Positions 2,547 to 62,828 of a stretch of 64,000 nucleotides of DNA are shown piece after piece. Under the pieces are notes generated by a model. It was not told where the DNA came from. It saw only the letters and a program-made list of their open reading frames with translations, and made no database searches. The first letter of the stretch is position 1. Each line of letters opens with the position of its first letter. The position numbers were made by a program, and so were the translations under genes. The stretch is from an uncultured Alphaproteobacteria bacterium (GTDB lineage: Bacteria; Pseudomonadota; Alphaproteobacteria; HIMB59; GCA-002718135): contig CABXIT010000003.1 of assembly GCA_902512325.1 (NCBI GenBank), positions 4,416 to 68,415 on the forward strand. Direction: 5' to 3'.

Positions 2547-2596
2547 TATTTGGAGAGTAGGAATAAAGGCGATGAGTGAGTGAGTCGGTTTCAAAA

Positions 2597-2670: not shown

Positions 2671-2701
2671 AAACGAAAATTTAATACTGGGGTAAAATAA
2701 A

Positions 2702-3892: not shown

Positions 3893-3934
3893 GTATTTGA
3901 GACCTCTCTATTAGTTTTAGCTATATTTAAAAAT

Positions 3935-33407: not shown

Positions 33408-33494
33408 GCGGCTGTGGCGGAATTGGTATACGCGCAGCGTTGAGGTCGCTGTGGGATTTATCCTGTGGAAGTTCAAGTCTTCTCAGCCGCACCA
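33408..33494 (+). tRNA. tRNA-Leu (anticodon GAG)
   Basis: 87 nt. Acceptor GCGGCTG/CAGCCGC, anticodon stem CAGCG/CGCTG with loop TT-GAG-GT, long variable arm, T loop TTCAAGT, encoded CCA. Confidence 0.92.
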
Positions 33495-36402: not shown

Positions 36403-37293
36403 ATGAAAATAGGTATTGATCTCGGTGGGACGAAGACCGAAGGTATTTTAATTGATGATTCAGGAAAAGAGCTTTCAAGAACTAGAATTAAAACTGAAAA
36501 AAATTATGATGGAACAATACAGGGTATAATTTCAATAGTTAAACAATTTGAAAGTGATTTTGGAAACGCAAAATCTGTTGGTATTGGAATGCCAGGAGCA
36601 GTATCTACAGATTCAGCCTTAGTAAAGAATGCTAATTCTATATGGTTAAATGGCAAACCATTTAAAAAAGATTTAGAAAAAGAACTTGATAAAAGTGTAA
36701 ATTTAGAAAATGATGCTAACTGCTTTACTTTATCAGAAGCAGTTGATGGATCGGGAAAAGGCCATGCTGTTGTATTTGGTGTAATCATTGGTACCGGTAC
36801 TGGTGGTGGAATTTCTATAAACCAAAAAGTTCTTACTGGTAAAAATAATATTGCTGGAGAATGGGGACATATAAGTTTACCTAATAGATCTGATGATGAA
36901 AAAAAATTTGTAAAACGATGTTATTGTGAAAAAAGTGGTTGCATGGAAACATATGTTTCCGGCCCTGGTTTTGCGAGCTGTTTCAATCTTAAACATAAAA
37001 CTAATTATGATTCCCACGCAATTTTAGAAGAATTTAAGAATAATGATCAAAGAGCAATTGAAGCATTAGACATTTATGTTGATCATTTAGCAAGAGGATT
37101 GTCTTTAGTCTGCAATATTTTAGATCCAGATATTATTGTTTTAGGTGGTGGAATGTCTAATATCTCTTACATTTACGATCATATAGATACTTCATTAAAA
37201 AAATATATTTTTAGTGATACATTTAATACAAAAGTTGTAAAAAATATACACGGTGACTCTGGAGGCGTAAGAGGAGCTGCTTGGCTATCTTAA
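36403..37293 (+). CDS. ROK-family sugar kinase (N-acetylglucosamine kinase NagK / fructokinase-like)
   Basis: 296 aa. Begins directly with the ATP-binding IGIDLGGTK, so there is no HTH domain. Has LENDANCF and the Zn motif GEWGH...C.C.KSGC. Strong by-eye similarity to E. coli NagK. Confidence 0.8.
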   Translation: MKIGIDLGGTKTEGILIDDSGKELSRTRIKTEKNYDGTIQGIISIVKQFESDFGNAKSVGIGMPGAVSTDSALVKNANSIWLNGKPFKKDLEKELDKSVNLENDANCFTLSEAVDGSGKGHAVVFGVIIGTGTGGGISINQKVLTGKNNIAGEWGHISLPNRSDDEKKFVKRCYCEKSGCMETYVSGPGFASCFNLKHKTNYDSHAILEEFKNNDQRAIEALDIYVDHLARGLSLVCNILDPDIIVLGGGMSNISYIYDHIDTSLKKYIFSDTFNTKVVKNIHGDSGGVRGAAWLS

Positions 37294-38741
37294 ATACCAG
37301 CCATTGAAATGTATTTAATATTTAAATAATCATCTAAACCATATCTAGAACCTTCTCTTCCAAGTCCAGATTCTTTGACTCCTCCAAAAGGTATTTCTGC
37401 TTTTGTTGTTAAACCAGTATTTACACCTACCATTCCGTATTCTAAAGCTTCAGCTACCCTCCATATTCTTCCAATATCTCTTGAATAAAAATATGAAGCA
37501 AGACCATAAGGAGTATTATTAGCAAGCTTAATTACTTCCTCATCTGTGCTAAATTTGTACAAAGGAGCTACTGGACCAAAAGTTTCTTCATAAGTAATTT
37601 TTGCTTCAGTTGTTACATTAGAGAGAACGGTTGGTTGAAAGAAGTTGCCACCAAGTGGGTGTATGTCTCCTCCTACGGCAATTTTTGCTCCTTGATTTAC
37701 TGCATCTTTAACTTGATCAAGAACTTTCATTAAAGAGGGCTGATCAATAAGTGGACCGGACACTATTCCTTCTTCTAATCCATTTCCAACTTTTATTTTA
37801 TTTACTTCTTGAGTGAATTTATCCAAAAATTTATCATAAACTTTTTCATGAACAAAAATTCTATTAGCGCATATGCAAGTTTGACCAGAATTTCTAAACT
37901 TACTCTGCATCGCTCCTATCACTGCCTCATCTATATTAGCATCTTCAAACACTACAAATGGTGCATGACCTCCTAATTCCATTGATACTTTTTTAACAGT
38001 AGATGCACTTTGTTTTAAAAGAATTTTTCCAACTTCTGTAGAGCCTGTAAATGATATTTTTTTAACTATTGGATTTTCAGTTAATTCTTTACCAATTGCT
38101 GCTGCAGATCCAGTGATAATATTAATTACTCCATCAGGGAATCCTGCTTCTTTAGCTAAAACACCAAGAGCAAGTGCTGAATATGGTGTTTGACTAGCTG
38201 GTTTAATAACAACAGTACATCCAACAGCAAGTGCTGGAGCACATTTTCTAGTAATCATTGTACTTGGAAAATTCCATGGAGTAATTGCACCTACGACACC
38301 AACAGGTTGTTTTATAATTACAATTCTTCTATCCGGCATTGGATCAGAGATGATATCACCATAAACTCTTTTTCCTTCTTCAGCATAAAAATCAATATAT
38401 GAAACTCCCATCAAGATTTCACCTTTTGCTTCAGCTAAAGGCTTACCTTGCTCTAAAGTCATAATTTTAGCTAAGTCATCGGCATTTTGCTCAATTAATC
38501 TAGCCCATTTTTGTAATATAATAGACCTTTCCTTTGCAGTTTTATCTCTCCAATTAGGAAATGCAGCTTGAGCTTCATCTATTGCCTTAGTAGTTTCTGA
38601 GGTTGAGCATTTAGGAACTTCGCCGATTATTTCATTGTTAGCAGGATTGTCGACTTTAATCTTTTCACCAGAATTGCTCTCTATCCATTTACCACCAACA
38701 AAACAATTTTCTTTAAAAAGTGCTTTATTTTTTAGTTCCAT
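37290..38741 (-). CDS. gabD: NAD(P)+-dependent succinate-semialdehyde dehydrogenase family aldehyde dehydrogenase
   Basis: 483 aa. ALDH motifs VSMELGGHAP (catalytic Glu) and FRNSGQTCICANR (catalytic Cys). GabD-like throughout. Confidence 0.85.
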   Translation of the reverse strand: MELKNKALFKENCFVGGKWIESNSGEKIKVDNPANNEIIGEVPKCSTSETTKAIDEAQAAFPNWRDKTAKERSIILQKWARLIEQNADDLAKIMTLEQGKPLAEAKGEILMGVSYIDFYAEEGKRVYGDIISDPMPDRRIVIIKQPVGVVGAITPWNFPSTMITRKCAPALAVGCTVVIKPASQTPYSALALGVLAKEAGFPDGVINIITGSAAAIGKELTENPIVKKISFTGSTEVGKILLKQSASTVKKVSMELGGHAPFVVFEDANIDEAVIGAMQSKFRNSGQTCICANRIFVHEKVYDKFLDKFTQEVNKIKVGNGLEEGIVSGPLIDQPSLMKVLDQVKDAVNQGAKIAVGGDIHPLGGNFFQPTVLSNVTTEAKITYEETFGPVAPLYKFSTDEEVIKLANNTPYGLASYFYSRDIGRIWRVAEALEYGMVGVNTGLTTKAEIPFGGVKESGLGREGSRYGLDDYLNIKYISMAGI

Positions 38742-38807
38742 ATTTACTCCTCTAATTTATGTATTTACTAGATTACTCTTTTTAACTTTTAATTTATAGA
38801 GGTAAAT

Positions 38808-39911
38808 ATGACAATTGTTAACTCTTGGAATGAATGGGATACCTTAAAGCATGTTATTGTAGGTACAGTAGAAAATTCAAATGTGCCACCGATGGAGCCT
38901 GCATTGGAACCAAAAATAAGTAAAGATAGTGGGATGGTTGGTTCACACGGACCAAGAAAACAAGAGTCTGTTGATAAAGCGAACATTCAACTTGATAGTT
39001 TTGTAAAAATTTTGGAGTCTCACGGAGTGCAGGTTGATCGTCCAACTCCTATAGATTTTACAAAAGCAATCTCTACACCAGATTGGAAAAATGATGGCCA
39101 ATTTGGATCAATGCCACCAAGAGATGTGATCTTAACTGTTGGTAATGAAATGCTAGAAGCACCAATGTCTTACCGCTGTAGGTGGTTTGAATATCTTGCA
39201 TACAGACCATTACTTGAAAAGTATTATGATGAAGATCCTAATATGCGATGGGAGTCAGCACCCAAGCCACGTCTTACATCTAAAACTTATAAATCAAATT
39301 ATTTACCTGAAGGTATAACTGAAGAAGACAGATATAAAAAAATTGAAGACAGAGATATGATTTTAACTGAACAAGAACCTCTTTTTGATGCAGCTGAAGT
39401 GCTACGCTTCGGAAAAGATTTATTTTATCATAATAATTTTACTTCAAATTTAAAGGGTTTGAATTGGTTAAGAAGACATTTTCCCAATCATCGTGTTCAT
39501 CAAATAAATTTACCAGGAGAATTAATTCCCACTCATATTGATGCATGTTTTACACCTATTAAACCTGGTGTAATAATTATCAATCCAAATAGAAAAATAT
39601 CTGAAGAGCAAAGAAAAATATTTGATAACAATAAATGGGAAATTCATGCTGCAGCACCTTCTGTTCATAATACTCCTCCACCAATGTGCTATTCAACAAT
39701 TTGGTTATCAATGAATGTTTTAATTTTAAATCCTTCAACTATTTGTGTAGAGGCAAGTGAAGAAAAAATGATTAAACAAATGGAAAGCTTTGGTATGAAT
39801 GTGATTCCAGTTCCTTTTCGAGATGTATATGCTTTTGGTGGTAGTCTTCATTGTGCGACTACAGATGTTTACCGAGAAGGAGATTGTGAAGATTACTTTC
39901 CAAATCAATAA
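38808..39911 (+). CDS. Glycine amidinotransferase (AGAT/StrB1)-family amidinotransferase
   Basis: 367 aa, collinear by eye with human AGAT. NSWNEWDTLKHVIVG (versus SSYNEWDPLEEVIVG). The catalytic triad contexts are conserved: FDAAE, PTHIDACF and GGSLHCATTDV. Confidence 0.8.
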   Translation: MTIVNSWNEWDTLKHVIVGTVENSNVPPMEPALEPKISKDSGMVGSHGPRKQESVDKANIQLDSFVKILESHGVQVDRPTPIDFTKAISTPDWKNDGQFGSMPPRDVILTVGNEMLEAPMSYRCRWFEYLAYRPLLEKYYDEDPNMRWESAPKPRLTSKTYKSNYLPEGITEEDRYKKIEDRDMILTEQEPLFDAAEVLRFGKDLFYHNNFTSNLKGLNWLRRHFPNHRVHQINLPGELIPTHIDACFTPIKPGVIIINPNRKISEEQRKIFDNNKWEIHAAAPSVHNTPPPMCYSTIWLSMNVLILNPSTICVEASEEKMIKQMESFGMNVIPVPFRDVYAFGGSLHCATTDVYREGDCEDYFPNQ

Positions 39912-40663
39912 TGAATAATTTTATACAAAACGATTTAAAACCAATAATACAAAGTACAACTAATCCCAGAATTGGCGTTATTACTCTTTCAACTGATTTT
40001 ACAATAGAGCAAGATTTTAGAAAAATATGCCATTCTCTTCCGATAGATATATTTTTTAACAGAATACCTTTTATTAATCCTTTAAATCATGAAAATTATT
40101 TAAAAATGGCAGAGCATATACCTGAGGTATCTGATCAGATTTTACCTGGAGAAAAAATTGATGTTATTGCATATGGATGTACTTCTGGGACTATTGCAAT
40201 CGGAGAAGAACATATATCAAGTCAGGTTCAAAAATCAAAACCTGAGGCCAAAGTTACAACCCCTATAACAGCAGCATTAAAGGCATTTAAAAAATTAAAT
40301 TTAAAAAATATAGCTGTATTAACGCCTTATCCCAAAGATGTTAATGTAACAGTTTTTGATTATTTAAGTAAAAATGATTTAACAATAGATTCTTTTAATT
40401 CTTTTAATTTAAATTATGACTCTGAAATTGCACAAGTAAGTTTAGAAAGTTTAAAAGAAAGCATAGCTAATATAAATTTAGATAATGTTGACGGATTGTT
40501 TGTCTCTTGTACAGCTCTTAAAATTGTCGATATTCTTGATGAGGTTGAAAAAAAATTTAATACAACTGTCATTTCTAGTAATCAGGCAATAATATGGGAT
40601 TGCTTACAATTGTTAGATATAAATATTAAAGTTCCAGGTTATGGAAAATTATTTAATAATTAA
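39911..40663 (+). CDS. Asp/Glu racemase-superfamily protein (maleate isomerase / arylmalonate decarboxylase-like; EutA-like)
   Basis: 250 aa with two Cys motifs (YGCTSGT and VSCTALK) at the spacing typical of this superfamily. It sits immediately upstream of EutB- and EutC-like genes. Confidence 0.65.
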   Translation: MNNFIQNDLKPIIQSTTNPRIGVITLSTDFTIEQDFRKICHSLPIDIFFNRIPFINPLNHENYLKMAEHIPEVSDQILPGEKIDVIAYGCTSGTIAIGEEHISSQVQKSKPEAKVTTPITAALKAFKKLNLKNIAVLTPYPKDVNVTVFDYLSKNDLTIDSFNSFNLNYDSEIAQVSLESLKESIANINLDNVDGLFVSCTALKIVDILDEVEKKFNTTVISSNQAIIWDCLQLLDINIKVPGYGKLFNN

Positions 40664-41614
40664 ATGATTTCTTTAGATCAAATTAAAGAGGCACATAAAA
40701 AAATTTCACCTCATATTAATTACACACCTTTAATTCATTCAGATTTTTTATCTAAAAATAGAAATGTAAAATTAAAATTAGAATCACTTCAAAAAACAGG
40801 ATCATTTAAATTAAGAGGAGCGCTTAATAAATTACTGTCACTTTCCAAAGATGAAAAAAGCAAAGGAGTGATAGCTGTTTCTACTGGCAATCATGGTAAG
40901 GGAGTAGCTTATGCTTCAAGTTTATTAGGTGTCAAATCAACTATTTATATGTCTTCTATGGTTCCAGAATACAGAAAATTAGCTATAGAAGCTTTAGGAG
41001 CTAATGTAGAAATAGTAGGTCAAAATAGTGATGAGGCAGATTTATATGCAAGAAATATTTCAGAAAAAGAAAATATAACTCTTATACATCCATTCGATGA
41101 TGAAGATGTTATTATAGGTCAGGGAACTACAGGTCTAGAAATGATTAATGATTTTCCTGAAGTTGATACAGTAATTATTCCTACCTCAGGTGGTGGGTTG
41201 ATTGGTGGAATTGCACTTGCGTTAAAATTACAAAAACCTAGTATTAAAGTAATAGCTGTTTCAATGGAAAGAGGACCCTCAATGTATGAAAGTTTGAAAC
41301 AAGGGAAACCAGTAGATGTAGAGGAATTAGAAACACTTGCTGATTGTTTGGGGGGGAGTATAGGTTTGAATAATAAATTTACGTTTAATATAGCTAAGGA
41401 AACAATAGATGATTTTGTACTAGTTAATGAAGATAAGATTGCCGAAGGTATAAAGTTAAATTTTACTGAACATAGAATAGTGACCGAAGGAGCTGCAGCA
41501 ACGAGCGTTATGGTAGCAAAAGATAATTTATCATCACATCTAGGAAAAAATATTATATGTCTAATTTGTGGAGGTAATATTGAGAAAAATTTATTTAATA
41601 AAATAATTTCATGA
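40664..41614 (+). CDS. PLP-dependent threonine/serine dehydratase-family enzyme (EutB-like)
   Basis: 316 aa. PLP-lysine motif GSFKLRGA and Gly-rich loop PTSGGGLIGG. Confidence 0.75.
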   Translation: MISLDQIKEAHKKISPHINYTPLIHSDFLSKNRNVKLKLESLQKTGSFKLRGALNKLLSLSKDEKSKGVIAVSTGNHGKGVAYASSLLGVKSTIYMSSMVPEYRKLAIEALGANVEIVGQNSDEADLYARNISEKENITLIHPFDDEDVIIGQGTTGLEMINDFPEVDTVIIPTSGGGLIGGIALALKLQKPSIKVIAVSMERGPSMYESLKQGKPVDVEELETLADCLGGSIGLNNKFTFNIAKETIDDFVLVNEDKIAEGIKLNFTEHRIVTEGAAATSVMVAKDNLSSHLGKNIICLICGGNIEKNLFNKIIS

Positions 41615-42591
41615 CATTAGTATTAAATTCTAGTGAAATAAAAAAATGTGTTCAGTTAAATGAGCAACTTATTCCTATAATTGAAGATGCTTTTAAAAGT
41701 TTAGCTTTGGGAAAAACAACGATGCCTCCAATCCTCCGTCTTGATATAGAAAAATATCATGGAGAATCTGATGTTAAGGCTGCTTATATAGAAGGATTAG
41801 ATAGTTACGCTATTAAGATTGCATCAGGTTTTTTTAATAATCCAAATTTAGGTCTTCCATCTAGTAATGGTTTAATGATTTTATTAGATTCAAAAACTGG
41901 TGTGTTAAAATCTGTGTTGTTGGATAAAGGATATTTAACAGATGTACGAACAGCTATAGCAGGTGCAATCGCAGCAAAACATTTATCAAATCCTGATTCT
42001 ACTAAAGCAGGTATTATAGGAGCAGGAATTCAAGCTAAATTACAACTTGAGGCATTAACTCTGGTTAGAAATATTGATACAGCATTTATATGGGCAAGAA
42101 ATTCTGAAAAAGTTAATCAATTTATTAAAGATGTTAGCAAATTAAAAATTAATTATAAAGTATGCTCTTCACCAGAAGAAGTTGTAAAACATTCAGAAAT
42201 TGTTGTGACAACCACTCCTAGTAAATCTTTTTTAATAAAAAATGAATGGTTAAAAAAAGGATTGCATATAACTGCAATGGGATCTGATGCTGAGCAAAAA
42301 AATGAATTAGAACCTCTTATAATAAAAAATTGTGATCAATACATTCCAGATAGTTTATCTCAAACAAGGATTTTAGGAGAGTTACATCATGCAATAGATA
42401 AAAATATAATCTTACCTAATGAGAATTTTAATGAGCTTGGTAATATTATTCTTGATTCTAATTTAGGTAGAAAAAATAAAGAAGACATAACTGTATGTGA
42501 CTTGACTGGAACTGGAGTTCAAGATACAGCCATTGCCAAACAAACATATGAAATAGCTATGAATTTAAAATTAGGAACAAATATTAATTAA
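41611..42591 (+). CDS. Ornithine cyclodeaminase / mu-crystallin family NAD(P) enzyme (EutC-like)
   Basis: 326 aa. OCD-family features (TDVRTAIAGAIAAKHL, Rossmann GIIGAGIQA). 4-nt overlap with the upstream gene. Confidence 0.75.
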   Translation: MTLVLNSSEIKKCVQLNEQLIPIIEDAFKSLALGKTTMPPILRLDIEKYHGESDVKAAYIEGLDSYAIKIASGFFNNPNLGLPSSNGLMILLDSKTGVLKSVLLDKGYLTDVRTAIAGAIAAKHLSNPDSTKAGIIGAGIQAKLQLEALTLVRNIDTAFIWARNSEKVNQFIKDVSKLKINYKVCSSPEEVVKHSEIVVTTTPSKSFLIKNEWLKKGLHITAMGSDAEQKNELEPLIIKNCDQYIPDSLSQTRILGELHHAIDKNIILPNENFNELGNIILDSNLGRKNKEDITVCDLTGTGVQDTAIAKQTYEIAMNLKLGTNIN

Positions 42592-42593
42592 TC

Positions 42594-44036
42594 ATGAACC
42601 AAGCCATTGTTAATAAAACTTCTGAATATTTCAAAAAAAAAGGAGTAATTTTACCTACAATTTCAGAACTTCGTGATCCTCATTCAATAGATGGAGATAT
42701 AAAAAATAAACTAAAAAATATTGATAAGAATACAATTGATCCACTAAATTTATTTAGAGTGCATTGGTTTAATAATAGAGATCACTCTTCTTTTTCGCAG
42801 GTTCCAGAACATATTGTACTTCCTAGTGAATTTACAGGAGTTGAAGCAAAAATAATTGTTAATATTGGTAGATTATTTCCATTAATAACTGCACATAAAG
42901 TTTTAGCAGCCTACGGATGTTTATTGCCAAGAATTTTAAATGGTACTTTTGATTATGAAAATCATAAAGCTGTTTGGCCTTCTACAGGTAATTATTGTCG
43001 AGGAGGAGTCGCTATTTCAAGAATACTCGGTTTAAAAAGTGTAGCTATCTTACCTGAAGGTATGAGTAAAGAACGCTTTGCTTGGTTAGAGAAATGGGTA
43101 GAGGATAAAAACGATATTATTAAAACAACCGGTACAGAGAGTAATGTAAAAGAAATATATGATGCTTGTAATGAATTAAAAAAAGATACAAAAAATGATA
43201 TTATTAATCAATTTGATGAATATTATAATTATGCAATTCATCGATCAGTAACAGGACCTTCATTTGAAAAATCATTTTTAAAAGTAAAAGGTGATTCAAG
43301 TTTAACACTAAGATTTTATGTAAGTGCCTCAGGCTCAAGTGGAACGCTTGCTGCAGGAGATTATTTAAAAGAACATTTAAATACAAAAATTGCAGTTGTT
43401 GAAGCAACAGAGTGCCCAACTTTGCTTAATAATGGTTACGGTGAACATAATATTCAAGGTATTGGTGATAAACATGTTCCATTAATTCACAATGTAATGA
43501 ATACTGATTTTGTTGTTGGTATTTCTGATCAAGCTACAAATAATCTTAACCTCATGTTTAATACAGAAATTGGAAAAAAATATTTAATTTCAAAAAAAGG
43601 TTTTGATAGTAATTTTGTTAATAGATTGCCTGAATTTGGGTTTTCAACAATTGCAAATATACTAGCTTCTATAAAATTAGCTCAATATATGAAATTAGGA
43701 GCTGATGATGCGATTATTACTGTTGCTACTGACGGTGCTGATTTGTATGCTTCTGAATTGCAAAAAACAAAAGATGATTTTAAAGGGATTTATGATGAAA
43801 CTGCATGTGCAGAGATATATGGCCAATATCTCAAAGGAATTTCTACAGATAATACTTTAGAGCTTACTCAAAGAGAAAGAGAAAGAATTTTTAATCTTGG
43901 ATATTATACCTGGGTAGAACAACAAGGCATTGATATTAATGAATTTGAGAAAAGAAGAGATCAAAATTTCTGGAATGAACATCATAATTATATGCTTTCT
44001 CTTGATAATCAAATTAAAGAATTTAATAGTATGTAA
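42594..44036 (+). CDS. Fold-type II (cysteine synthase / Trp synthase beta-like) PLP-dependent enzyme with extensions, specific function unknown
   Basis: 480 aa. Candidate PLP-lysine in LITAHKV, followed by WPSTGNYCRGGV (cf. the S-x-G-N loop) and GSSGTLAAG (Gly-rich phosphate loop). It is about 150 aa longer than CysK/SbnA. Confidence 0.55.
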   Translation: MNQAIVNKTSEYFKKKGVILPTISELRDPHSIDGDIKNKLKNIDKNTIDPLNLFRVHWFNNRDHSSFSQVPEHIVLPSEFTGVEAKIIVNIGRLFPLITAHKVLAAYGCLLPRILNGTFDYENHKAVWPSTGNYCRGGVAISRILGLKSVAILPEGMSKERFAWLEKWVEDKNDIIKTTGTESNVKEIYDACNELKKDTKNDIINQFDEYYNYAIHRSVTGPSFEKSFLKVKGDSSLTLRFYVSASGSSGTLAAGDYLKEHLNTKIAVVEATECPTLLNNGYGEHNIQGIGDKHVPLIHNVMNTDFVVGISDQATNNLNLMFNTEIGKKYLISKKGFDSNFVNRLPEFGFSTIANILASIKLAQYMKLGADDAIITVATDGADLYASELQKTKDDFKGIYDETACAEIYGQYLKGISTDNTLELTQRERERIFNLGYYTWVEQQGIDINEFEKRRDQNFWNEHHNYMLSLDNQIKEFNSM

Positions 44037-44039
44037 TCT

Positions 44040-45197
44040 ATGAAGACCCAAAGTTTACATAATCAATTAGTTGATTGGAGACATGATTTGCACATGAATC
44101 CACAAATAAGTTTTGAAGAAGAATATGCCTCAAATAAAGTAGCAAATTTGATGAAAGATTTTGGAATAGAAGTTCATCAAGGGATTGCTAAAACTGGTGT
44201 AGTGGGAGTTTTAAAAAAAGGAAACAGTAATAAAAGCATAGGTATCAGAGCGGATATGGATGCTTTACCAATTAATGAGATAAATACATTTTCTTATAAA
44301 TCTACAATTGAAAATAGAATGCACGCTTGTGGTCATGATGGACATATGACAATGTTATTAGGTGCAGCAAAATATTTAGCAGAACAGGGAAACTTTGATG
44401 GCACTATATATTTTATCTTTCAACCTGATGAAGAAAATACTTTTGGTGCAAAAACAATGATTGAGGAAGGTTTATTTACAAAATTTTCAATTGATGAAGT
44501 TTACGGTATGCATAACATTCCTGGTATGGAAACTGGAACATTTGGCACTAGAAAAGGAGGTATTACCACTAGTGAAAATTTATTTGAAATTTCAATTGAG
44601 GGTAAGGGCGGTCATGCAGCTTTACCCCATATGAGTAAAGATACAATAACAATTGGTAGTCAAATAATTATAGCTTTACAAACTATTGTTTCTCGTAAAT
44701 TAAATCCTGTAGAAGCAGGTGTAGTATCTGTTACTGAATTTATTACTGATGGAAAAAAAAATGTACTCGCTGGTAATGGTTTAATAAAAGGAGATGCAAG
44801 GGCATTTTCTGAAAAAACTAATACAATGATTGAGCAAAGCATGCGCCAACTAGTCAAAGGAATTTGTGATGCACATGGTGTTTCCTATGAAGTTAAATAT
44901 GAAACTACTTGTCCCATGACTTTTAATCAACCCGAACAAGCTAAATCAGCAACAAAAGCTGCAATCTCTTTATTAGGAACGGATAAATGCAATAGTGATA
45001 TTGAACCTAGATCTTTCTCAGAAGATTTTTCTATTATGTCAAAATCAACACCTGGATGTTTTGTATTGATGGGTAATGGCATCTCTGGATCAAATGGCAG
45101 ACCTTTGCACTCAGCGGACTATGATTTTAATGATGAATTATTAGTTAAAGGGTCTTCATATTGGGTTGAGTTAGCAGAACAACAATTAACATCATAA
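44040..45197 (+). CDS. M20D-family amidohydrolase (hippurate hydrolase / N-acyl-amino-acid deacylase-like)
   Basis: 385 aa. MHACGHDGH metal motif with typical ILR1/HipO-like architecture. Confidence 0.8.
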   Translation: MKTQSLHNQLVDWRHDLHMNPQISFEEEYASNKVANLMKDFGIEVHQGIAKTGVVGVLKKGNSNKSIGIRADMDALPINEINTFSYKSTIENRMHACGHDGHMTMLLGAAKYLAEQGNFDGTIYFIFQPDEENTFGAKTMIEEGLFTKFSIDEVYGMHNIPGMETGTFGTRKGGITTSENLFEISIEGKGGHAALPHMSKDTITIGSQIIIALQTIVSRKLNPVEAGVVSVTEFITDGKKNVLAGNGLIKGDARAFSEKTNTMIEQSMRQLVKGICDAHGVSYEVKYETTCPMTFNQPEQAKSATKAAISLLGTDKCNSDIEPRSFSEDFSIMSKSTPGCFVLMGNGISGSNGRPLHSADYDFNDELLVKGSSYWVELAEQQLTS

Positions 45198-45220
45198 ACT
45201 TTTGAAAGGGAAATATTAAG

Positions 45221-46375
45221 ATGTTTAAAAATAATTTAAATAAATTAGTAGAAAGAATGAAAGAGAGTAATATTGATCTAGCTGTTATTACTGATGATGA
45301 CAGTTTGTATTATTTTACTGGATACCACGACTTTCTTCACATGGATTTTAATCGTCCAACAATCCTTCTTGTTTCAAAAGATGGTGAAAGTACTTTGATC
45401 ACCCCTTTATTAGATGTACTTTTAGTTCCAGATGATACACCAGTAGGTAAAATAGAAACATGGAATGATGGTATTGGTGAGGAGTGGAGAGAATTTTTAC
45501 CAAAAATAATAAATAAACATAATAAAATTTTTTGTGAAAAATATAAAATAAATGCAACTGTAAATAATTATTTGTATGAATTAATGAATGGCAAACCTCT
45601 TGAAAATATTACACCGATTGTCAGTGAAATTCGTATGATTAAATCAGATGAAGAATTAAAAATAGCAAGACATACGGGTGAAGTAGCAATGGCAATGATG
45701 GAAGGAGCAAAATCTGTTATTGGCCACAATGTACCAGAATTTGAAATTGCTATAGCTCAATCTCAAGCGGGGACAAGAAAAGCAGCTCAGTTACTGCAAG
45801 ACCATTATCCTAAAAGTATCAACATGTCTCCAAATATACATTTTTTATCAGCTATTTCCTCAGGTAAGGATTTACCCAAAACACATCATCGTGCTTCAAC
45901 AAAATTAGTAAAGAAAGGTGATCCTATATTTGTTTGTTATTGTGGATCTGCTAATTTTCATAGATTTAAATTAGGCTTTGATCGTATTTTTTGGGTTGAA
46001 GAAATAAAAGATAAAAATCAAATAAAAGCTTTTGAAGTGGCAGTAAAATCACAACAAGCTGCTTTAAATGTTCTTCGCCCTGGTGTAACTGCTGAAGAGG
46101 TTCATGCAGCTTATGCAGAAACTATACAATCTGAAGGCTACCCATATCCTACTTTTAGATGTGGAAGAGGAACAGGTTTTAGTTTTTTAGAAGAGCCTCA
46201 ACTTGTTGTAGGAAATAAAACAGTTCTAAAACCTGGCATGGTTTTTGCAGTTGATGGTGGGAGTAGTGCAAAAGATTTTAGAGGTCAAGTAGGTGATAGT
46301 TTTATTATTACAGAAGATGGATATGAACAAATTACACATCACTCGAAAGCTATTGAAGATTTAATAATTAACTAA
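45221..46375 (+). CDS. M24-family (Xaa-Pro peptidase / creatinase fold) hydrolase, paralogue 1
   Basis: 384 aa. Creatinase-like N-domain plus a pita-bread C-domain (GDPIFVCYCG..., GMVFAVDGG). The second canonical Asp ligand position appears substituted. Confidence 0.7.
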   Translation: MFKNNLNKLVERMKESNIDLAVITDDDSLYYFTGYHDFLHMDFNRPTILLVSKDGESTLITPLLDVLLVPDDTPVGKIETWNDGIGEEWREFLPKIINKHNKIFCEKYKINATVNNYLYELMNGKPLENITPIVSEIRMIKSDEELKIARHTGEVAMAMMEGAKSVIGHNVPEFEIAIAQSQAGTRKAAQLLQDHYPKSINMSPNIHFLSAISSGKDLPKTHHRASTKLVKKGDPIFVCYCGSANFHRFKLGFDRIFWVEEIKDKNQIKAFEVAVKSQQAALNVLRPGVTAEEVHAAYAETIQSEGYPYPTFRCGRGTGFSFLEEPQLVVGNKTVLKPGMVFAVDGGSSAKDFRGQVGDSFIITEDGYEQITHHSKAIEDLIIN

Positions 46376-47397
46376 TGGAAAAAATTAAACTCTACAACGC
46401 ACATTGTTGTGGTGAAATAGGTGATGTCATTGTATCTGGAAAAATAAATTTAGAAGGCAATACTATATTAGAACAATCAAAATATTTATTTGATGACAAA
46501 AAACTAAGAAAATTTTTACTTAATGAGCCTAGAGGAGGGGTATTTAAGCATTATAATTTATTAGTTCCTCCAAAAAATGAAAAAGCAAAAGCGGCTTTTA
46601 TAATAATGGAGCCTGAAGATAATCCTCCAATGAGTGGTTCAAATAGTATTTGTGTAGCTACTGTTCTGCTTGAAAAAGGAATTATAGATATAAAAGAACC
46701 AACAACAGAATTCTTACTTGAAGCACCGGGTGGCATTATTCCAATAAAAGCATTTGTTGAAAATAAAAAAGTAAACTTTGTTGAAATTCACAATCTACCA
46801 TCATTCGTTGATAAAGTAGATGTGCAACTTCAAACATCTTCATTTGGAGAAATAATAGTTAGCACAGTTTTTGGAGGTGATAGTTTTGTTATCTGTAATG
46901 CACAAGATTTTGATTTAAGTATTAAACCTGAGAATGCCAAAAAATTTGTTGAAATTTCTAAAGAAATTGTAAAGGAAGCAAATTATCATTTGGGTTTTCA
47001 ACATCCAAGCTTACCTGATTTAAATTTCATTTCTTTTTGTCAATTTATTGAACCTATAAAAATAAATCATCTAAATCAAAAAGAAGGTTGGAATACTGTG
47101 TGTATTAGACCAGGAAAATTGGACAGATCTCCATGTGGTACAGGCACCTCTGCTAGGTTGGCCCTCATGCATGAAAAAAAAGAAATCGATATAAATGAAA
47201 AATTTATCTCAAGATCTATTATTGGTTCTACTTTTGAATCATATATTGCTAAAGAGTACATAGAGGAAAATAAAAAAATGATTATTCCTTCAATTAAAGG
47301 ATCAGCTTTTATAACTGGTGAACAAGAAATGTATATTTCTAATGATGATCCTTTTCCAGAAGGTTATCAACTAAATGATACATGGCCAACAGATTAG
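46375..47397 (+). CDS. Proline racemase / hydroxyproline epimerase superfamily protein with predicted Ser/Cys catalytic pair
   Basis: 340 aa. The second catalytic motif DRSPCGTGTSA is intact. The first motif reads PMSGSNS where canonical members have MCGH. Confidence 0.75.
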   Translation: MEKIKLYNAHCCGEIGDVIVSGKINLEGNTILEQSKYLFDDKKLRKFLLNEPRGGVFKHYNLLVPPKNEKAKAAFIIMEPEDNPPMSGSNSICVATVLLEKGIIDIKEPTTEFLLEAPGGIIPIKAFVENKKVNFVEIHNLPSFVDKVDVQLQTSSFGEIIVSTVFGGDSFVICNAQDFDLSIKPENAKKFVEISKEIVKEANYHLGFQHPSLPDLNFISFCQFIEPIKINHLNQKEGWNTVCIRPGKLDRSPCGTGTSARLALMHEKKEIDINEKFISRSIIGSTFESYIAKEYIEENKKMIIPSIKGSAFITGEQEMYISNDDPFPEGYQLNDTWPTD

Positions 47398-47418
47398 AAG
47401 GTTAAATTATTTGAATTT

Positions 47419-48420
47419 TTATTCTGATAAAGATTTTATCTTATCAACGAGTTCTTTGTTTATATTTCGCGCACCGCTATCTAATCTATTTTTATGCCTT
47501 CTTTCTCCTGGTAGTCTAACACCTTCAAGAGATTTCATTTGATCAAAAAATTTTTCAGCATGTTCATTCCAGTTATCACCAGCAATTAATTGAGGAGATA
47601 AAGCCATAATAAATTCACCACCCCTAGCTGGTCCACCATCGTTATTATCTGCTTCTTTTGCTTCAAAACTGAATAAATCACCAACTAATCCTGCGGCTAA
47701 TAACTCTATCATCATAGCAATAGCTGATCCTTTATAATCACCAAAAGTTAATAAAACACCGCCATTAGCAATTTCAGATGGGTTATCTGTTTTTTCACCA
47801 TCTTTATTTAGTCCTGTCCCATAAGGAACTTTATGACCATCTCTAGCAGCAACTTGAACCTCGCCCATTGCCATTGTTGAAGTTGCCATGTCATATACTA
47901 CTGGCGTATTATTCTTTCTTGGCCATGCAAATGAAATTGGATTAGTTCCAAACAAAGGTTTTTTTGCACCAGCAGGTGCAACACTTGGTTTGTAGGCTGT
48001 ACATGCAATTCCTATTAATTCATTTTCTGCTAAAGCTTCAGTCTCATGCCATAAAGCAGCAAAGTGATGAGTGTTGGTAATAGTTAGAACGCCCACGCCA
48101 TGTTTTTTGGTGACTTCTACTAACGCAGGAATACCAACTCCAATTGCTGTAGGAGCAAATCCATAATCACCCTCTACCTTAATTGCGTTTTGCGTTAAAA
48201 AATTATTCTTTGGTCTAGCATTACCTTTAACTTTTTTACTTTTTAAAGCTGCAATATACCCAGGTATTCTGAAAAGCCCATGTGATACACTTCCATCTCT
48301 TTCAGCATTCGTTACAGTATGTGCAACAGCTTCTGCGTTAAGTTCATCGCAACCATTAAATTTAAGTGTTTTTAGGGCTAGATTATATATTTCTTCCAAG
48401 GATAGGTCGGTAGTTGTCAT
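47419..48420 (-). CDS. Ldh_2 (malate/L-lactate dehydrogenase 2) family oxidoreductase; candidate delta1-pyrroline/piperideine-2-carboxylate reductase
   Basis: Ldh_2-family features (SHGLFRIPGY, GTNPISFAWP, MATSTMAMGEV). The preferred start is the ATG at 48420 (MTTTDLS), preceded by AAGGA 7 nt upstream. The maximal ORF extends to 48465. Confidence 0.75.
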   Translation of the reverse strand: MTTTDLSLEEIYNLALKTLKFNGCDELNAEAVAHTVTNAERDGSVSHGLFRIPGYIAALKSKKVKGNARPKNNFLTQNAIKVEGDYGFAPTAIGVGIPALVEVTKKHGVGVLTITNTHHFAALWHETEALAENELIGIACTAYKPSVAPAGAKKPLFGTNPISFAWPRKNNTPVVYDMATSTMAMGEVQVAARDGHKVPYGTGLNKDGEKTDNPSEIANGGVLLTFGDYKGSAIAMMIELLAAGLVGDLFSFEAKEADNNDGGPARGGEFIMALSPQLIAGDNWNEHAEKFFDQMKSLEGVRLPGERRHKNRLDSGARNINKELVDKIKSLSE

Positions 48421-48568
48421 AATATTCCTTTTATAAATTTGAGCTAAAGTATCTATATAGCGCATTTACAATTAGGATTAAATGGCTAAAGATATAAGTT
48501 TATTTTAAATTGTTTCAAAATCAGAAACTTTTTATTTTACGTAAAATATTTGAGGATATAGAAATTTT

Positions 48569-49834
48569 ATGACTCGTTTTAATGCATGGAATGTATTTAA
48601 AAATGGTTTTACTGGTCAAAAAAACTGGGATCGTCAATGGCGTGACCCAGAACCAAAAAAACAATATGATATAATAATAGTAGGAGGTGGCCTTCATGGT
48701 TTAGCTACTGCTTATTATTTAGCAAAAAATCATAATAAAAAAAATATAGCAGTTTTAGAAAAGGGATGGATAGGTGGTGGAAACGCTGGACGGAACACAA
48801 CTATAGTACGCTCAAATTATATGTTGCCCGGTAATCATGAATTTTATGAACATTCATTAAAGCTTTGGGAGAATTTGAGTCACGAATTAAATTATAATGT
48901 TATGTTTAGTCAAAGAGCACATGTCTCACTTTTTCATAGCCCCGGAGCAAAAGATGGGGCAGCAAGAAGATATAATATTATGCGCTTATATGGTACTGAT
49001 GCTGAATTGTGGGACTTAGATACTTTAAAAAAAAATATTCCTCATTTAAATTATTATGATGCAAGATTTCCAATTATGGGTGCTGCGGTACAAAGGAGAG
49101 CAGGAAATGCTAGACATGATTCAGCAGTATGGGGATATGCAAGAGCTGCTGATAGTTTAGGAGTAGATATATTACAAAATTGTGAAGTAACTGGTGTTAA
49201 GAGATCACAAAATAATATTGAAAGTTTAGAAACTTCAAGAGGAACTATTAAAGCTAAAAAAGTGGGTTTTGCTGTTGCAGGACATACTTCTGTTTTATGG
49301 CAAATGGCTGGACTTGGAAATTTACCTATTGAGTCACACAAGCTTCAAGCATTCGTAACAGAGTCAGTTAAACCTCTTTTAGATCATGTAGTTGTGTATG
49401 GTGTTGGAGGAGCTCATTTTTATATTTCCCAATCTGATAAGGGTAGTATGGTTTTTGGTGGAGATTTAGATTGGTATAAATCATATGCTCAAAGAGGAAA
49501 TTTACCAATGGTGCAAGATACTGCGGAAGCGGCTATGGCTATAATGCCTTGTTTAGGCAGAATTCGGCTTTTACGTCACTGGGCTGGCGTCATGGATATG
49601 TCTATGGATGGCTCTTTTTTCATATGCAAAACTCCTTTATCAAATTTGTATCTCAATGCTGGATGGAATTATGGAGGCTTCAAAGCAAGTCCTGCTTCAG
49701 GTTGGTATTTTGCTGATTTAATTGCTAGTGAACAACCTCATAAACATATTCAAAATCATAATTTAGAGAGATTTGAAAAAGGAATTAACATTGATGAGCG
49801 GGGCGCTGGTCCTGATCCAAAGTTGCACGGTTGA
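48569..49834 (+). CDS. soxB: Sarcosine oxidase beta subunit
   Basis: 421 aa. FAD motif IIIVGGGLHGLATAY and a SoxB-like N-terminus (WRDPEPKKQYD). First gene of soxBDAG. Confidence 0.92.
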   Translation: MTRFNAWNVFKNGFTGQKNWDRQWRDPEPKKQYDIIIVGGGLHGLATAYYLAKNHNKKNIAVLEKGWIGGGNAGRNTTIVRSNYMLPGNHEFYEHSLKLWENLSHELNYNVMFSQRAHVSLFHSPGAKDGAARRYNIMRLYGTDAELWDLDTLKKNIPHLNYYDARFPIMGAAVQRRAGNARHDSAVWGYARAADSLGVDILQNCEVTGVKRSQNNIESLETSRGTIKAKKVGFAVAGHTSVLWQMAGLGNLPIESHKLQAFVTESVKPLLDHVVVYGVGGAHFYISQSDKGSMVFGGDLDWYKSYAQRGNLPMVQDTAEAAMAIMPCLGRIRLLRHWAGVMDMSMDGSFFICKTPLSNLYLNAGWNYGGFKASPASGWYFADLIASEQPHKHIQNHNLERFEKGINIDERGAGPDPKLHG

Positions 49835-49835
49835 T

Positions 49836-50120
49836 ATGATAAGAATTAAATGTCCATATTGTGGTGAGAGAGATCATAGCGAGTTCACTTATGGAGGTGA
49901 TGCGTCTATTAAATATCCAGCGCTTGATGCACCTGAGTCAGAATGGACAAAGGCTATTTTTTTTCGCGAAAATATAAGAGGAATGCAAAAAGAAACTTGG
50001 CATCACACAAATGGTTGCAGACTCTGGCTAGAAGTAGAGAGATCTACGATTACGCATGAAATTAAAAGTGTTAAAGCATGTCATCCACAAATTGAAAAAA
50101 TTACAAAAAGTAAGTCATGA
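49836..50120 (+). CDS. soxD: Sarcosine oxidase delta subunit
   Basis: 94 aa from the ATG at 49836 (MIRIKCPYCGERDHSEF, the Zn-ribbon typical of SoxD). The track's upstream start overlaps soxB. Confidence 0.9.
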   Translation: MIRIKCPYCGERDHSEFTYGGDASIKYPALDAPESEWTKAIFFRENIRGMQKETWHHTNGCRLWLEVERSTITHEIKSVKACHPQIEKITKSKS

Positions 50121-53074: not shown

Positions 53075-53633
53075 TAGAAATTCAGCGATAAAAGAAAAAT
53101 ATAAAGTTGGTAAGTGTCCTTTTGAAGACAAAGTTGAAATAATATTTTCTGAAAATCACAATCTTGTAATTCAACAAATTGCCTCTTGGCCTGATGAAAT
53201 ATCAAATCTAGAAAAATTATTTTTTAATGAGTTAGGTTTTAAACAAAATACAGATTTTAATAGAGGGGAAATTTTAAAAAATAATTCATTGTGGAGAATG
53301 GAGCCTCTTAAGTGGTGGTTATTAGGTAATATTATTGATGTACCAGAGAATTTAGGAACATCACTTGAACTATCTCACGCCTTTACATCAATAATGATTG
53401 ATGGTGAAAAAAGTGAAATTTTACTAAACAAACACTTACCACTTGATCTACGTTTAGATTATTTTCCAATAAATTCATCAGCTAGTTCAGCCATTCATCA
53501 TGTTAGTATTAAACTTTTTAGACTTAATGAGAAAAAATTTAATCTTCTTATACCTAGAGGCTTTGCTTTGTCTATTTGGGAAATTTTAATTGAGTCAGCA
53601 TTTCAATTTGGATACGAAATAAAAGATAATTAA
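53067..53633 (+). CDS. soxG: Sarcosine oxidase gamma subunit
   Basis: 188 aa. The call rests on position and size in the soxBDAG operon. 8-nt overlap with soxA. Confidence 0.8.
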   Translation: MLDRNSAIKEKYKVGKCPFEDKVEIIFSENHNLVIQQIASWPDEISNLEKLFFNELGFKQNTDFNRGEILKNNSLWRMEPLKWWLLGNIIDVPENLGTSLELSHAFTSIMIDGEKSEILLNKHLPLDLRLDYFPINSSASSAIHHVSIKLFRLNEKKFNLLIPRGFALSIWEILIESAFQFGYEIKDN

Positions 53634-53675
53634 ACTTAATAGACATTATTCTTTTTCCATATTAAACCATTAGAA

Positions 53676-54851: not shown

Positions 54852-54852
54852 A

Positions 54853-55533: not shown

Positions 55534-55536
55534 AAA

Positions 55537-57195: not shown

Positions 57196-57252
57196 ATAGA
57201 AATATATATAGTGGATTATGATCTTTTTCACTATTAGAAGTTAATTAAAAAT

Positions 57253-60264: not shown

Positions 60265-60383
60265 TAATAGCACCAATTTCTGCGGTATTTTTGCCCTTTT
60301 TTTTAATTTTCCTACATGTTAATAGGACTATATATATCGACATATAATCTTAAGATTAAATAATTTAAAACAGGAGGAAACAT

Positions 60384-61487: not shown

Positions 61488-61518
61488 GCTTGATAAAGTA
61501 ACTAAATTAATTTAATTT

Positions 61519-61545
61519 AAAGGCGAGATTTATCTCGCCTTTTTA
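61519..61545 (+). terminator. Rho-independent terminator/attenuator after the binding-protein gene
   Basis: GGCGAGA-TTTA-TCTCGCC hairpin (61522-61539) flanked by AAA and TTTTT. It is the clearest intrinsic terminator in the window. Confidence 0.8.
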
Positions 61546-61578
61546 TTTAGGGAGGTTTGTATTTCTACTGCAGAATTA

Positions 61579-62826: not shown

Positions 62827-62828
62827 AT

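Follow-up and report, generated by a model that had tools for sequence, protein, structure and literature searches.

What does a tightly packed run of nine genes do for an uncultured alphaproteobacterium of the HIMB59 group? The question is raised by a 64,000-nucleotide stretch of contig CABXIT010000003.1, here called the window, in which an earlier reading of the letters alone (the sequence-only reading) had seen a mosaic: an EutA-EutB-EutC trio, of the kind that belongs to ectoine and hydroxyectoine utilization, set among partner genes that corresponded to no known pathway. All nine of the open reading frames that it had delimited are present, and searches of Pfam, NCBIfam and PDB sequences upheld the families to which it had assigned them (Table 1). 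Its description of the packing was equally accurate, since the eight junctions lie between -4 and +23 nt (in order, -1, 0, -4, +2, +3, +23, -1 and +21 nt, the last being the junction of ProRac with the convergent Ldh_2 gene). The GC content is about 30% across the window, which is most closely related to single-cell and metagenome-assembled genomes from Pelagibacterales and the HIMB59/MarineAlpha5 group. Public annotation of the operon is generic, our literature searches found no paper describing the locus, and the partner genes matched no described pathway in the literature searched, as had been claimed.

We propose that the nine genes form the conserved centre of an island in a SAR11/HIMB59-type genome, devoted to the catabolism of nitrogen-rich zwitterionic osmolytes and fused from three layers, a proposal on which our judgement is evenly balanced between belief and doubt. 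It draws on gene families, on the conservation of gene order, on links with transporters and on the state of active sites. The description that fits the locus best is that of an ectoine/hydroxyectoine-type catabolic operon in a SAR11-lineage variant, fused to a second hydrolase-lyase-demethylase unit, and the genes from AGAT to ProRac would constitute one operon.

Conservation of the arrangement was established with the fifth product, a 480-residue pyridoxal phosphate (PLP) enzyme that we call PLP480. With this probe, relatives were found in 248 species-level genomes, the best 80 loci were taken and synteny was determined by tblastn; presence counts cover the assessable loci (56 for most genes, and 47 for soxB, EutD and EhuB). 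The gene order of the window is shared by 65 independent SAR11/HIMB59-type loci, which is far beyond chance: what had been taken for a mosaic combination is a conserved core locus of SAR11-type genomes and not a peculiarity of the window. About 85-100% of the 56 loci have the order AGAT-EutA-EutB-EutC-PLP480-M20-M24a-ProRac-(sox), which in full reads gshAB-bioY-ROK-ALDH(-)-AGAT-EutA-EutB-EutC-PLP480-M20-M24a-ProRac-[Ldh2(-)]-soxBDAG-[EutD]-DUF3726(-), where ALDH stands for aldehyde dehydrogenase. EutB and EutC are present in every locus (56/56), followed by M20 (55/56), AGAT (53/56), EutA (52/56), M24a (51/56), the ALDH (49/56), ProRac (48/56) and soxB (42/47); EutD occurs at this site in 14 of 47 loci, Ldh2 in 10 of 56 and EhuB in 3 of 47, and DUF3726 follows soxG in 22 of 47. 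The invariant core is EutB-EutC-PLP480-M20. Gaps in the related loci range from -5 to +33 nt, with medians of -1 to +21 nt from AGAT to ProRac, and about 88 nt separate ProRac from soxB across loci.

Two groups of loci have arrangements of their own. In a SAR11 subgroup (L028, L034, L037, L046 and L076) the operon stops at M20, the PotA-type ATP-binding cassette (ABC) transporter that the window carries at 59167-63725 comes directly after it, and the entire M24a-ProRac-sox-hom segment is missing. Three MarineAlpha5/HIMB59-type loci (L005, L007 and L008) lack AGAT and EutA. Two extra M24 genes lie upstream of EutB in L005 and L008; those of L008 have 'ectoine hydrolase DoeA_2' as their best NCBIfam match, far under its cutoff, and an Ehu-like binding protein, an ArgE-type deacetylase and a GATase are encoded nearby.

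The ectoine-type character of the trio was assessed by reference to the canonical Leisingera cluster, enuR-TRAP-usp-eutA-eutB-eutC-eutD-(eutE)-asnC-ssd-atf (TRAP, tripartite ATP-independent periplasmic transporter). Identities to the Leisingera counterparts amount to 37% for EutA, 45% for EutB, 47-48% for EutC (47-50% to canonical EutC proteins), 42-45% for EutD and, for the divergent ALDH compared with Ssd, 47.8% over 477 residues. The A-B-C order is the alphaproteobacterial one (PMC13188858), and the best NCBIfam matches of EutB, EutC and EutD are ectoine-pathway models. By its scores EutC falls securely within the EutC clade: it passes NF006141 (cutoff 408), reaches 423 bits on TIGR02992 (under the 472 cutoff), and at 423-457 bits, compared with 520-569 for canonical proteins, stands about 190 bits clear of the next family (269 bits). 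EutB appears intermediate, with 345-373 bits against 508-554 for canonical proteins and a cutoff of 413; its margin over the next family (308 bits) is 65 bits, that of canonical EutB about 250, and its best PLSDB matches were all annotated EutB (hydroxyectoine dehydratase), at about 45% identity. 'EutA' can be placed at the family level only, since on TIGR02990 canonical proteins score 412 bits, that of the window 213 (cutoff 318) and paralogues from unrelated contexts 180-186. Of the claim that these genes are the EutABC trio, the order and the families hold, with EutC in its clade; orthology of the whole trio is not supported, EutA reaching those 213 bits.

Other components of ectoine catabolism were found at some distance or were missing altogether. 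A EutD/DoeA homologue, which the sequence-only reading had missed, lies 5 kb downstream, beyond the region that reading had covered; it aligns with 6twk over its full length and scores 468 bits on TIGR02993, under the cutoff of 613. The gabD-like dehydrogenase upstream, which had been put forward as the semialdehyde dehydrogenase, resembles Ssd (48% identity) as much as EutB and EutC resemble their counterparts (45-48%), which supports that suggestion. The lack of EutE, of a diaminobutyrate (DABA) transaminase and of EnuR/AsnC regulators was confirmed, none being matched in the window or in the 80 related loci, where EutE was sought by tblastn with the Leisingera protein (E 1e-5). The window has no counterparts of Atf, AsnC, EnuR or the TRAP binding protein; Atf, AsnC and EnuR are likewise absent from the 80 loci, and the TRAP binding protein was only weakly matched (23% identity), in L071.

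Transporter links and the M20 gene bear most directly on the ectoine-type branch. Neither ehuABCD nor other ectoine transporter genes occur in the window. In three sister loci (L064, L065 and L077), genes for EhuA, EhuB, EhuC and EhuD that pass all four equivalog cutoffs lie between EutC and PLP480, with PLP480 starting 2 nt past ehuD. This segment (about 4590-9998 in L064) also holds a molybdopterin S/N-oxide reductase of the bisC/TorA family, and it looks like a segment recombined or replaced within the operon: flanking genes are 94-98% identical to those of the window, and identity falls to 76-77% in EutC and PLP480. The M20 protein scores 306 bits (cutoff 550) on the NCBIfam M20 'DoeB2' model, which describes an N-acetyl-DABA deacetylase. 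In R. tropici an M20 gene adjoins eutB-eutC in a cluster that also has two EutD-like M24 genes, atf and an ALDH gene, and an M20-type (abgB) substitute for EutE has been proposed for Bacillota (PMC13188858). Because of the EhuABCD genes of the sister loci, the R. tropici arrangement, this proposal and the DoeB2 match, we infer an ectoine/hydroxyectoine-type branch in which the M20 aminoacylase probably replaces EutE.

This branch would be the first of the three layers. Its substrate would be imported by EhuABCD, encoded within the operons of sister genomes, opened at the ring by EutD, and relieved of its N-acetyl group by the M20 aminoacylase in the place of EutE. The 3-hydroxy-diaminobutyrate would be processed by EutB as a dehydratase, EutC as an NAD(P) imine reductase and the EutA-family protein as an epimerase, and a transaminase encoded elsewhere and the Ssd-type ALDH would take the carbon to aspartate. 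Here and below, every substrate and the order of the reactions are our proposal.

The second layer involves two enzymes of unusual kind, PLP480 and M24a. PLP480 carries an N-terminal extension of about 100 residues and a C-terminal one of 90; its AlphaFold2 model has a pLDDT (predicted local distance difference test) of 74, with CBS, CysK and SbnA as best Foldseek matches (about 20% identity), and in this moderate-confidence model the extensions gave no Foldseek match. Among its conserved motifs, 'HK' would contain the PLP lysine, SASGSSGT would form the phosphate loop and STGNY the Asn loop that binds the carboxylate, and the enzyme is predicted to be a beta-eliminating or beta-replacing lyase. 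Close relatives form more than 8000 protein clusters in metagenomes, and a search of 5.8 billion proteins was saturated by relatives of more than 80% identity. In independent contexts PLP480 is linked with Ehu or Ehu-like transporters, M20, M24a and AGAT. One SAR11 locus (L067, 5094-20395) holds a second PLP480 copy (77%) and an AGAT paralogue (61%), together with a divergently transcribed Ehu-like transporter, two PhyH/chlorinase-like dioxygenase genes, EamA, a luciferase-like (LLM) monooxygenase, an Xsc/ALS-like thiamine diphosphate (ThDP) enzyme, an alpha/beta hydrolase and an ALDH; the association of PLP480 with AGAT is thus not tied to EutABC. The only plasmid-borne homologues of PLP480 (about 50% identity) are those of Rhizobium sp. 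NXC24 (L083) and Bosea vaviloviae (L084).

M24a was compared with the prolidase of P. furiosus (1pv9), whose metal ligands are Asp, Asp, His, Glu and Glu. All five are replaced in M24a (by Cys, Gly, Arg, Asp and Gly), and the replacements are invariant in 140 sequences, with 150 of 384 positions at least 97% invariant. A prolidase was ruled out on the loss of these ligands, and the 'M24 hydrolase' of the sequence-only reading is not a peptidase. The pattern indicates a re-purposed, strongly constrained active site, apparently of the creatinase/ectoine-hydrolase kind. Similarity to creatinases is weak (1chm at 2e-16, 7yto at 2e-7, 1kp0 at 3e-5), and that to DoeA (1e-7) shows that the protein is not EutD-like.

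The sox genes complete this unit. They stand in the order soxB-soxD-soxA-soxG, SoxA carries a GCV_T folate-binding domain, and SoxB, which scores above its family cutoff, matches the beta subunit of a characterised heterotetrameric sarcosine oxidase (TSOX; 2gag_B) at E 1e-120, with 407 bits against crystallised sarcosine oxidases. It is 77% identical to the roseobacter copies that follow M24a. SAR11 Ia genomes have two paralogous soxBDAG operons whose function has been called unclear (PMC3160333; PMC9321204).

The same association was found outside SAR11. The best non-SAR11 homologues of M20 (50-51%) and M24a (54-56%) occur together on plasmids of Roseovarius pelagicus and Aminobacter sp. SR38, both of which carry an operon of M24a, an EutA-family gene, soxB (77% to that of the window), soxD, soxA (58%) and (soxG), an operon of M20 and 'diaminopropionate ammonia-lyase' (a fold-II PLP enzyme), an Ehu-like ABC transporter (EhuA about 54%, the binding protein only about 30%), and LysR and AsnC regulators. 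A genome scan with the Roseovarius M24a gave 332 species-level relatives, of which 80 loci were taken; 57 of these, Rhodobacterales-type, extend over at least 15 kb. Near M24a lie an EutA-family gene in 34 of the 57 loci, an Ehu-like transporter in 20-30, a third M24 gene (M24c) in 28, M20 in 27, soxBDAG in 21, a Rieske protein after soxG in 20, a DpaL-like lyase in 15, a pair of an Asp/Glu racemase and a dimethylglycine dehydrogenase (DMGDH)-like protein in 15, and a PLP480 homologue (53-57%) in 8. The compact form runs from TRAP through Amdase-M20-M24a-M24c-PLP480 to AmtB. The linkage of PLP480 or DpaL with M20, M24a, a racemase-type protein and, in many cases, Sox is thus a functional association that does not depend on SAR11. 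EutB, EutC (save one weak EutC-like match), AGAT and ProRac were found in none of the 57. Leisingera species possess a canonical eut cluster besides this unit, and their coexistence suggests different substrates. On the Roseovarius pelagicus plasmid (L087, 17507-20766) and in many of the loci L091-L170, an additional EutA-family gene ('Asp/Glu racemase') accompanies a gene for an 816-residue DMGDH-like flavoprotein, and a Rieske protein comes after soxG; EutA-family proteins are repeatedly paired with N-demethylating enzymes.

The second layer would comprise PLP480, M20, M24a, a cofactor-independent racemase and SoxBDAG, as it also does in Rhodobacterales beside Ehu-like or TRAP transporters. 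Its logic would be that of the first layer, with hydrolysis by a metal-free M24 enzyme, deacylation, epimerization and the action of a fold-II PLP lyase, to which an N-demethylase is added, and its substrate would be a different one, probably an N-methylated amidino or amino acid. We tentatively suggest, with rather more doubt than confidence, that PLP480-M20-M24a-(racemase)-SoxBDAG is an undescribed pathway for an abundant marine nitrogenous osmolyte, with a metal-free M24 enzyme (Cys/Arg/Asp site) and a CysK-fold lyase as key enzymes. Candidate substrates may be an N-methylated cyclic amidine, a guanidino acid or a related ectoine analogue.

The third layer would be lineage-specific and consist of ProRac with the DpkA-type reductase, leading from 3-hydroxyproline or an imino acid to proline, and of the arginine-type amidinotransferase. 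ProRac is closest to bacterial trans-3-hydroxy-L-proline (t3Hyp) dehydratases (PDB 4k8l, 1tm0 and 4k7g, about 1e-105) and scores 439 bits on NF047722, the T3LHyp dehydratase model (cutoff 550). Its catalytic pair is Ser ('MSGSN') and Cys ('DRSPCGTG') in 51 of 51 orthologues, whereas the three structures have Thr at the Cys position; the dehydratase-type pair (Cys/Thr or Ser/Thr) is absent from all of these orthologues. Ser/Cys members of the proline-racemase superfamily include 4-hydroxyproline 2-epimerases (PMC4113996). ProRac is putatively a 3-hydroxyproline dehydratase and/or an imino-acid 2-epimerase. The Ldh_2 protein matches DpkA (1wtj/2cwf) at E 2e-70, compared with 5e-38 for the next member, sulfolactate dehydrogenase. 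Together the two resemble the known module that leads from t3Hyp through pyrroline-2-carboxylate (Pyr2C) to proline; the sequence-only reading, which matched the combination as a whole to no known pathway, is to be amended here, since the pair is of a characterised module type, with the caveat of the Ser/Cys pair. The amidinotransferase has no Pfam match. Its alignment to human AGAT (1jdx) spans residues 4-364, and the motifs of the Asp-His-Cys triad (FDAAE, THID, GGSLHC) are conserved in 58 orthologues. Equivalents of the donor (arginine)-binding residues, which we take to be Asp170, Asp305, Arg322 and Ser355, are kept, and the flap residues, presumably Asn300 and Met302, are replaced. Photobacterium homologues of this AGAT, outside SAR11, have no genes of the cluster nearby.

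Table 1. Genes and features of the window, with position, strand and the matches on which each assignment is based.
Feature	Position	Strand	Basis
Ssd-type NAD(P)-dependent semialdehyde dehydrogenase, SSADH subfamily, divergent from operon	37290..38741	-	Pfam Aldedh; TIGR01780 709 > 646 bits
AGAT-family amidinotransferase, first gene of operon	38808..39911	+	PDB human AGAT 1jdx, E 3e-73, full length
EutA-family (Asp/Glu-racemase / arylmalonate-decarboxylase fold) protein, putative epimerase	39911..40663	+	TIGR02990 213 bits (cutoff 318)
EutB-like fold-II PLP beta-hydroxy-amino-acid dehydratase (predicted)	40664..41614	+	NF005680 373, TIGR02991 345 bits (cutoff 413)
EutC-clade ornithine-cyclodeaminase/mu-crystallin family NAD(P) enzyme (predicted imine reductase or cyclodeaminase)	41611..42591	+	NF006141 457 > 408 bits
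PLP480, 480 aa, divergent CysK/CBS-fold PLP enzyme	42594..44036	+	PDB CysK at 2e-15 only
M20D aminoacylase-type amidohydrolase (M20)	44040..45197	+	TIGR01891 313 > 154 bits
M24a, creatinase/ectoine-hydrolase-like 'pita-bread' hydrolase	45221..46375	+	Pfam Peptidase_M24 + Creatinase_N
ProRac, proline-racemase-superfamily enzyme	46375..47397	+	Pfam Pro_racemase
DpkA-type delta1-pyrroline-/piperideine-2-carboxylate reductase (Ldh_2), convergent, accessory	47419..48465	-	PDB 1wtj/2cwf DpkA, E 2e-70
soxB, soxD, soxA, soxG, heterotetrameric sarcosine-oxidase-family N-demethylase (predicted)	48569..53633	+	TIGR01373 600 > 529 bits; SoxD Pfam; SoxA GCV_T
EutD/DoeA-like ectoine hydrolase homologue, accessory, directly after soxG	53676..54851	+	PDB 6twk, E 5e-110
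DUF3726 protein (probable homA)	54853-55533	-	
564-aa protein without Pfam match (probable homB)	55537-57231	-	
M19 dipeptidase (probable homC)	57253-58230	+	
PotA-type ATPase, SBP_bac_8 binding protein, two permeases, EamA exporter	59167-63725; 58227-59090	+; -	
tRNA gene between lipB and gshA	33408-33491	+	
Four further tRNA genes	1432-4007		

Beyond soxG and EutD lie what are probably homABC, and the larger nitrogenous-osmolyte island probably also holds these homarine genes. The published homarine operon includes HomA (about 700 nt), HomB (about 1,700 nt) and a HomC peptidase (PMC13236597), and the DUF3726, 564-residue and M19 genes fit homA, homB and homC in size and family. Plasmid pPGA1_262 of Phaeobacter inhibens has the order LysR-ALDH-M19-567 aa-DUF3726, and the 564-residue and M19 proteins of the window are 40% identical to their counterparts in this species. 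No homD-type ALDH adjoins the hom-like genes in the window; the upstream ALDH was considered as HomD and ruled out, its identity being 32% compared with 48% to Ssd. The nine-gene cluster was likewise ruled out as the published hom operon, which corresponds to the neighbouring genes at 54853-58230. Farther downstream are transport genes (Table 1), among them an SBP_bac_8 binding protein without NCBIfam assignment, whose ligand may bear on the substrates of the island. The 5' side is occupied by a ribosomal-protein operon, lipB, gshA, gshB, bioY and a ROK kinase, and the tRNA gene between lipB and gshA marks the boundary between this ribosomal/housekeeping block and the catabolic island.

Contigs of in-situ metatranscriptomes (Logan) cover all genes at low depth, one of them bridging M20 and M24a, which shows that the genes are expressed. 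A scan of 37000-55600 for Rfam elements, including glycine and guanidine riboswitches, returned none even at E <= 1, and control by a riboswitch or other RNA was ruled out on that result. Scans for promoters and terminators gave counts at the level of shuffled sequence and are uninformative in DNA of 30% GC.

Several observations weigh against the proposal of a three-layered osmolyte island with an ectoine-type branch. EutA, EutB and EutD fall under their equivalog cutoffs, and EutA is barely closer to canonical EutA than paralogues from unrelated contexts are. A DABA transaminase, EutE and a regulator are present in no locus, be it the window or the 80 others. EutD (14/47) and EhuABCD (3/47) are accessory while EutB and EutC are universal, and the core may therefore act on something besides ectoines, or on N-acetyl-diamino acids imported directly. 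Nothing gives AGAT or PLP480 a role in the ectoine scheme. The PLP480 homologues of Rhizobium and Bosea lie near TauE/SafE-type exporters and M20 genes, and in Bosea also near a ThDP enzyme, a context that hints at a different chemistry with a sulfonated or other beta-substituted amino acid as substrate. In the window the convergent Ldh_2 gene parts sox from the operon, and sox could encode an N-methylglutamate dehydrogenase (NMGDH) that works with the homarine genes next to it. The transcript contigs are short and do not prove a single mRNA. Finally, even in model organisms the biochemistry of EutABC has yet to be proven (PMC5924519), and the literature offers their role as a proposal (PMC5924519; PMC13188858).

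It could be argued that genome streamlining has simply concatenated independent modules (EutBC-type, hydroxyproline, sarcosine oxidase, amidinotransferase and homarine) that share neither a pathway nor a class of substrates, an explanation that we consider unlikely. Presence and absence are indeed modular: Ldh2 occurs in 10 of 56 loci and EutD in 14 of 47, ProRac is missing in some loci, M24a-to-sox is missing in L028-type loci, and L005, L007 and L008 have neither AGAT nor EutA. The flanks, moreover, are unrelated housekeeping genes (gshAB, bioY and ROK), with the probable homABC adjacent. However, the combinations M20-fold-II PLP lyase, M24a-racemase-sox and PLP480-M20-M24a recur in distant Alphaproteobacteria with large, unstreamlined genomes, where they adjoin dedicated transporters and regulators, and start and stop codons overlap from AGAT through ProRac.

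We judge it improbable that the locus is mainly a route from creatine or guanidino acids to glycine, serving the glycine requirement of SAR11, with the Eut-like genes as unrelated passengers. In such a route a creatinase-type M24a would release sarcosine and urea, Sox would make glycine from the sarcosine, and AGAT would link guanidinoacetate/ornithine reversibly with arginine/glycine. M24a is non-metallo, has a Creatinase_N domain and lies directly upstream of sox in both SAR11 and Rhodobacterales, SoxB is close to characterised sarcosine oxidases, and the catalytic and donor-binding residues of AGAT are intact. In addition, a SAR11 'creatinase' has been annotated and creatine-to-glycine genes have been noted in metagenomes (PMC3686209), and creatine use has been predicted for AEGEAN-169 (PMC11366302). 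Yet the match of M24a to creatinases is no better than that to archaeal prolidases, creatine is achiral while a racemase-type gene is conserved between M24a and sox, and AGAT is missing from the Rhodobacterales units. The route also leaves M20, PLP480, EutB and EutC, the most conserved genes, without a role.

The sox operon might instead stand outside the cluster and encode NMGDH (mgdABCD) for the adjacent homarine genes, which we regard as very doubtful. The breakdown of homarine gives N-methylglutamate and requires NMGDH, an enzyme frequently misannotated as soxBDAG (PMC13236597); probable homA, homB and homC lie directly past soxG and EutD, DUF3726 follows soxG in 22 of 47 loci, and the function of the two sox-like operons of SAR11 is unsettled (PMC3160333). 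But SoxB is 77% identical to roseobacter copies that belong to M24a-Amdase-sox-Rieske units near DMGDH-like genes and not to hom genes, its 407 bits are against crystallised sarcosine oxidases, and hom-like genes occur in only 3-4 of the 57 Rhodobacterales-type loci.

Least probable of all is an operon for hydroxyproline-containing peptides or imino acids, in which M20 and M24a would act as di-/tripeptidases (prolidase), ProRac, DpkA and EutC (as a second Pyr2C reductase) would turn 3-hydroxyproline into proline, and EutB would deaminate hydroxy-amino acids: the likeness of ProRac to bacterial t3Hyp dehydratases and of Ldh_2 to DpkA, the Pyr2C reductases of the ornithine-cyclodeaminase (OCD) and Ldh_2 families known as neighbours of proline-racemase-superfamily genes (PMC4113996) and the M19 dipeptidase nearby speak for it, but M24a without its five metal ligands is no prolidase, the pair of ProRac is Ser/Cys and not Ser/Thr or Cys/Thr, Ldh2 occurs in only 10 of 56 loci, EutC scores 457 bits on the EutC model against 144 on that of Pyr2C reductases, and the M19 gene is better explained as homC.

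The catabolic island for nitrogenous osmolytes would be of consequence in the ocean. SAR11 and its relatives are the most abundant heterotrophs there, their small genomes keep few operons of this size, and this operon is nearly universal in the best 80 SAR11/HIMB59-type loci. SAR11 genomes have so far been credited with ectoine transport only, and our literature searches found no description of ectoine catabolism or of an amidinotransferase in SAR11; if the operon degrades ectoines, it would constitute a catabolic sink for a widespread nitrogen-rich osmolyte, and the locus bears on the biochemistry of EutABC. The second unit ties a sarcosine-oxidase paralogue, the substrate of which has been in question since 2011 (PMC3160333), to two enzymes of a new type, and should it be the undescribed pathway that we tentatively suggest, one of the two unexplained sox operons of SAR11 would gain a function. 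Orthologues of this unit in genetically tractable roseobacters are candidates for finding the substrate. Taken together, the locus points to an unassigned nitrogen-osmolyte route in the most abundant bacteria of the ocean.

Comparison with known systems places the locus closest to the eut and doe clusters of Ruegeria pomeroyi, Sinorhizobium meliloti and Halomonas elongata (enuR-uehABC/ehuABCD-usp-eutABCDE-asnC-ssd-atf; doeABXCD). It shares with them the A-B-C order of an EutA-family, an EutB-like and an EutC-clade gene, a EutD/DoeA homologue, an Ssd-type ALDH and, in sister loci, EhuABCD, as well as the logic of an M24 ring hydrolase followed by a deacylase and a fold-II PLP lyase. Unlike them, the window has no EutE, Atf, EnuR, AsnC, Usp or TRAP genes and places M20 at the position of the deacetylase, EutD is 11 kb from EutABC, AGAT, PLP480, M24a, ProRac and sox are interleaved, and the Eut-like proteins, EutC excepted, remain under equivalog cutoffs. 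The M20-eutB-eutC clusters of rhizobia (R. tropici CIAT 899, pRtrCIAT899b), with which we group the eutD-eutC-atf/abgB clusters proposed for Bacillota (PMC13188858), also have M20 adjoining eutB-eutC, several EutD-like M24 genes and no EutE; however, the rhizobial and Bacillota clusters keep atf and AsnC-type regulators and lack PLP480, AGAT, ProRac and sox, and their M20 proteins are only 30% identical to that of the window.

The remaining genes have parallels of their own. The trans-3-hydroxy-L-proline pathway, as reportedly worked out by Watanabe and by Zhao in 2014, joins the t3Hyp dehydratase LhpH to a Pyr2C reductase, LhpD/DpkA or LhpI. The window shares with it a proline-racemase-superfamily gene beside a DpkA-type Ldh_2 gene and an OCD gene in the cluster, but its ProRac has the epimerase-capable Ser/Cys pair and lies between M24a and sox, and the reductase is missing in most loci. 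With soxBDAG and mgdABCD the sox genes share the B-D-A-G order, a folate-binding SoxA and about 400 bits to TSOX beta; unlike in glycine-betaine or methylamine pathways, their partners are M24a, a racemase, PLP480 and M20. M24a has the Creatinase_N and M24 architecture of creatinase and ectoine hydrolase, likewise with no dinuclear metal site, but an invariant set of its own (Cys239, Asp254, Arg316, Asp345 and Asp359). Finally, the amidinotransferase shares full-length homology, an intact triad and arginine-binding residues with the AGAT family (AGAT, StrB1, CyrA, SxtG and AmtA), but in the window it heads a catabolic-looking operon and not one for the biosynthesis of a toxin, an antibiotic or creatine.

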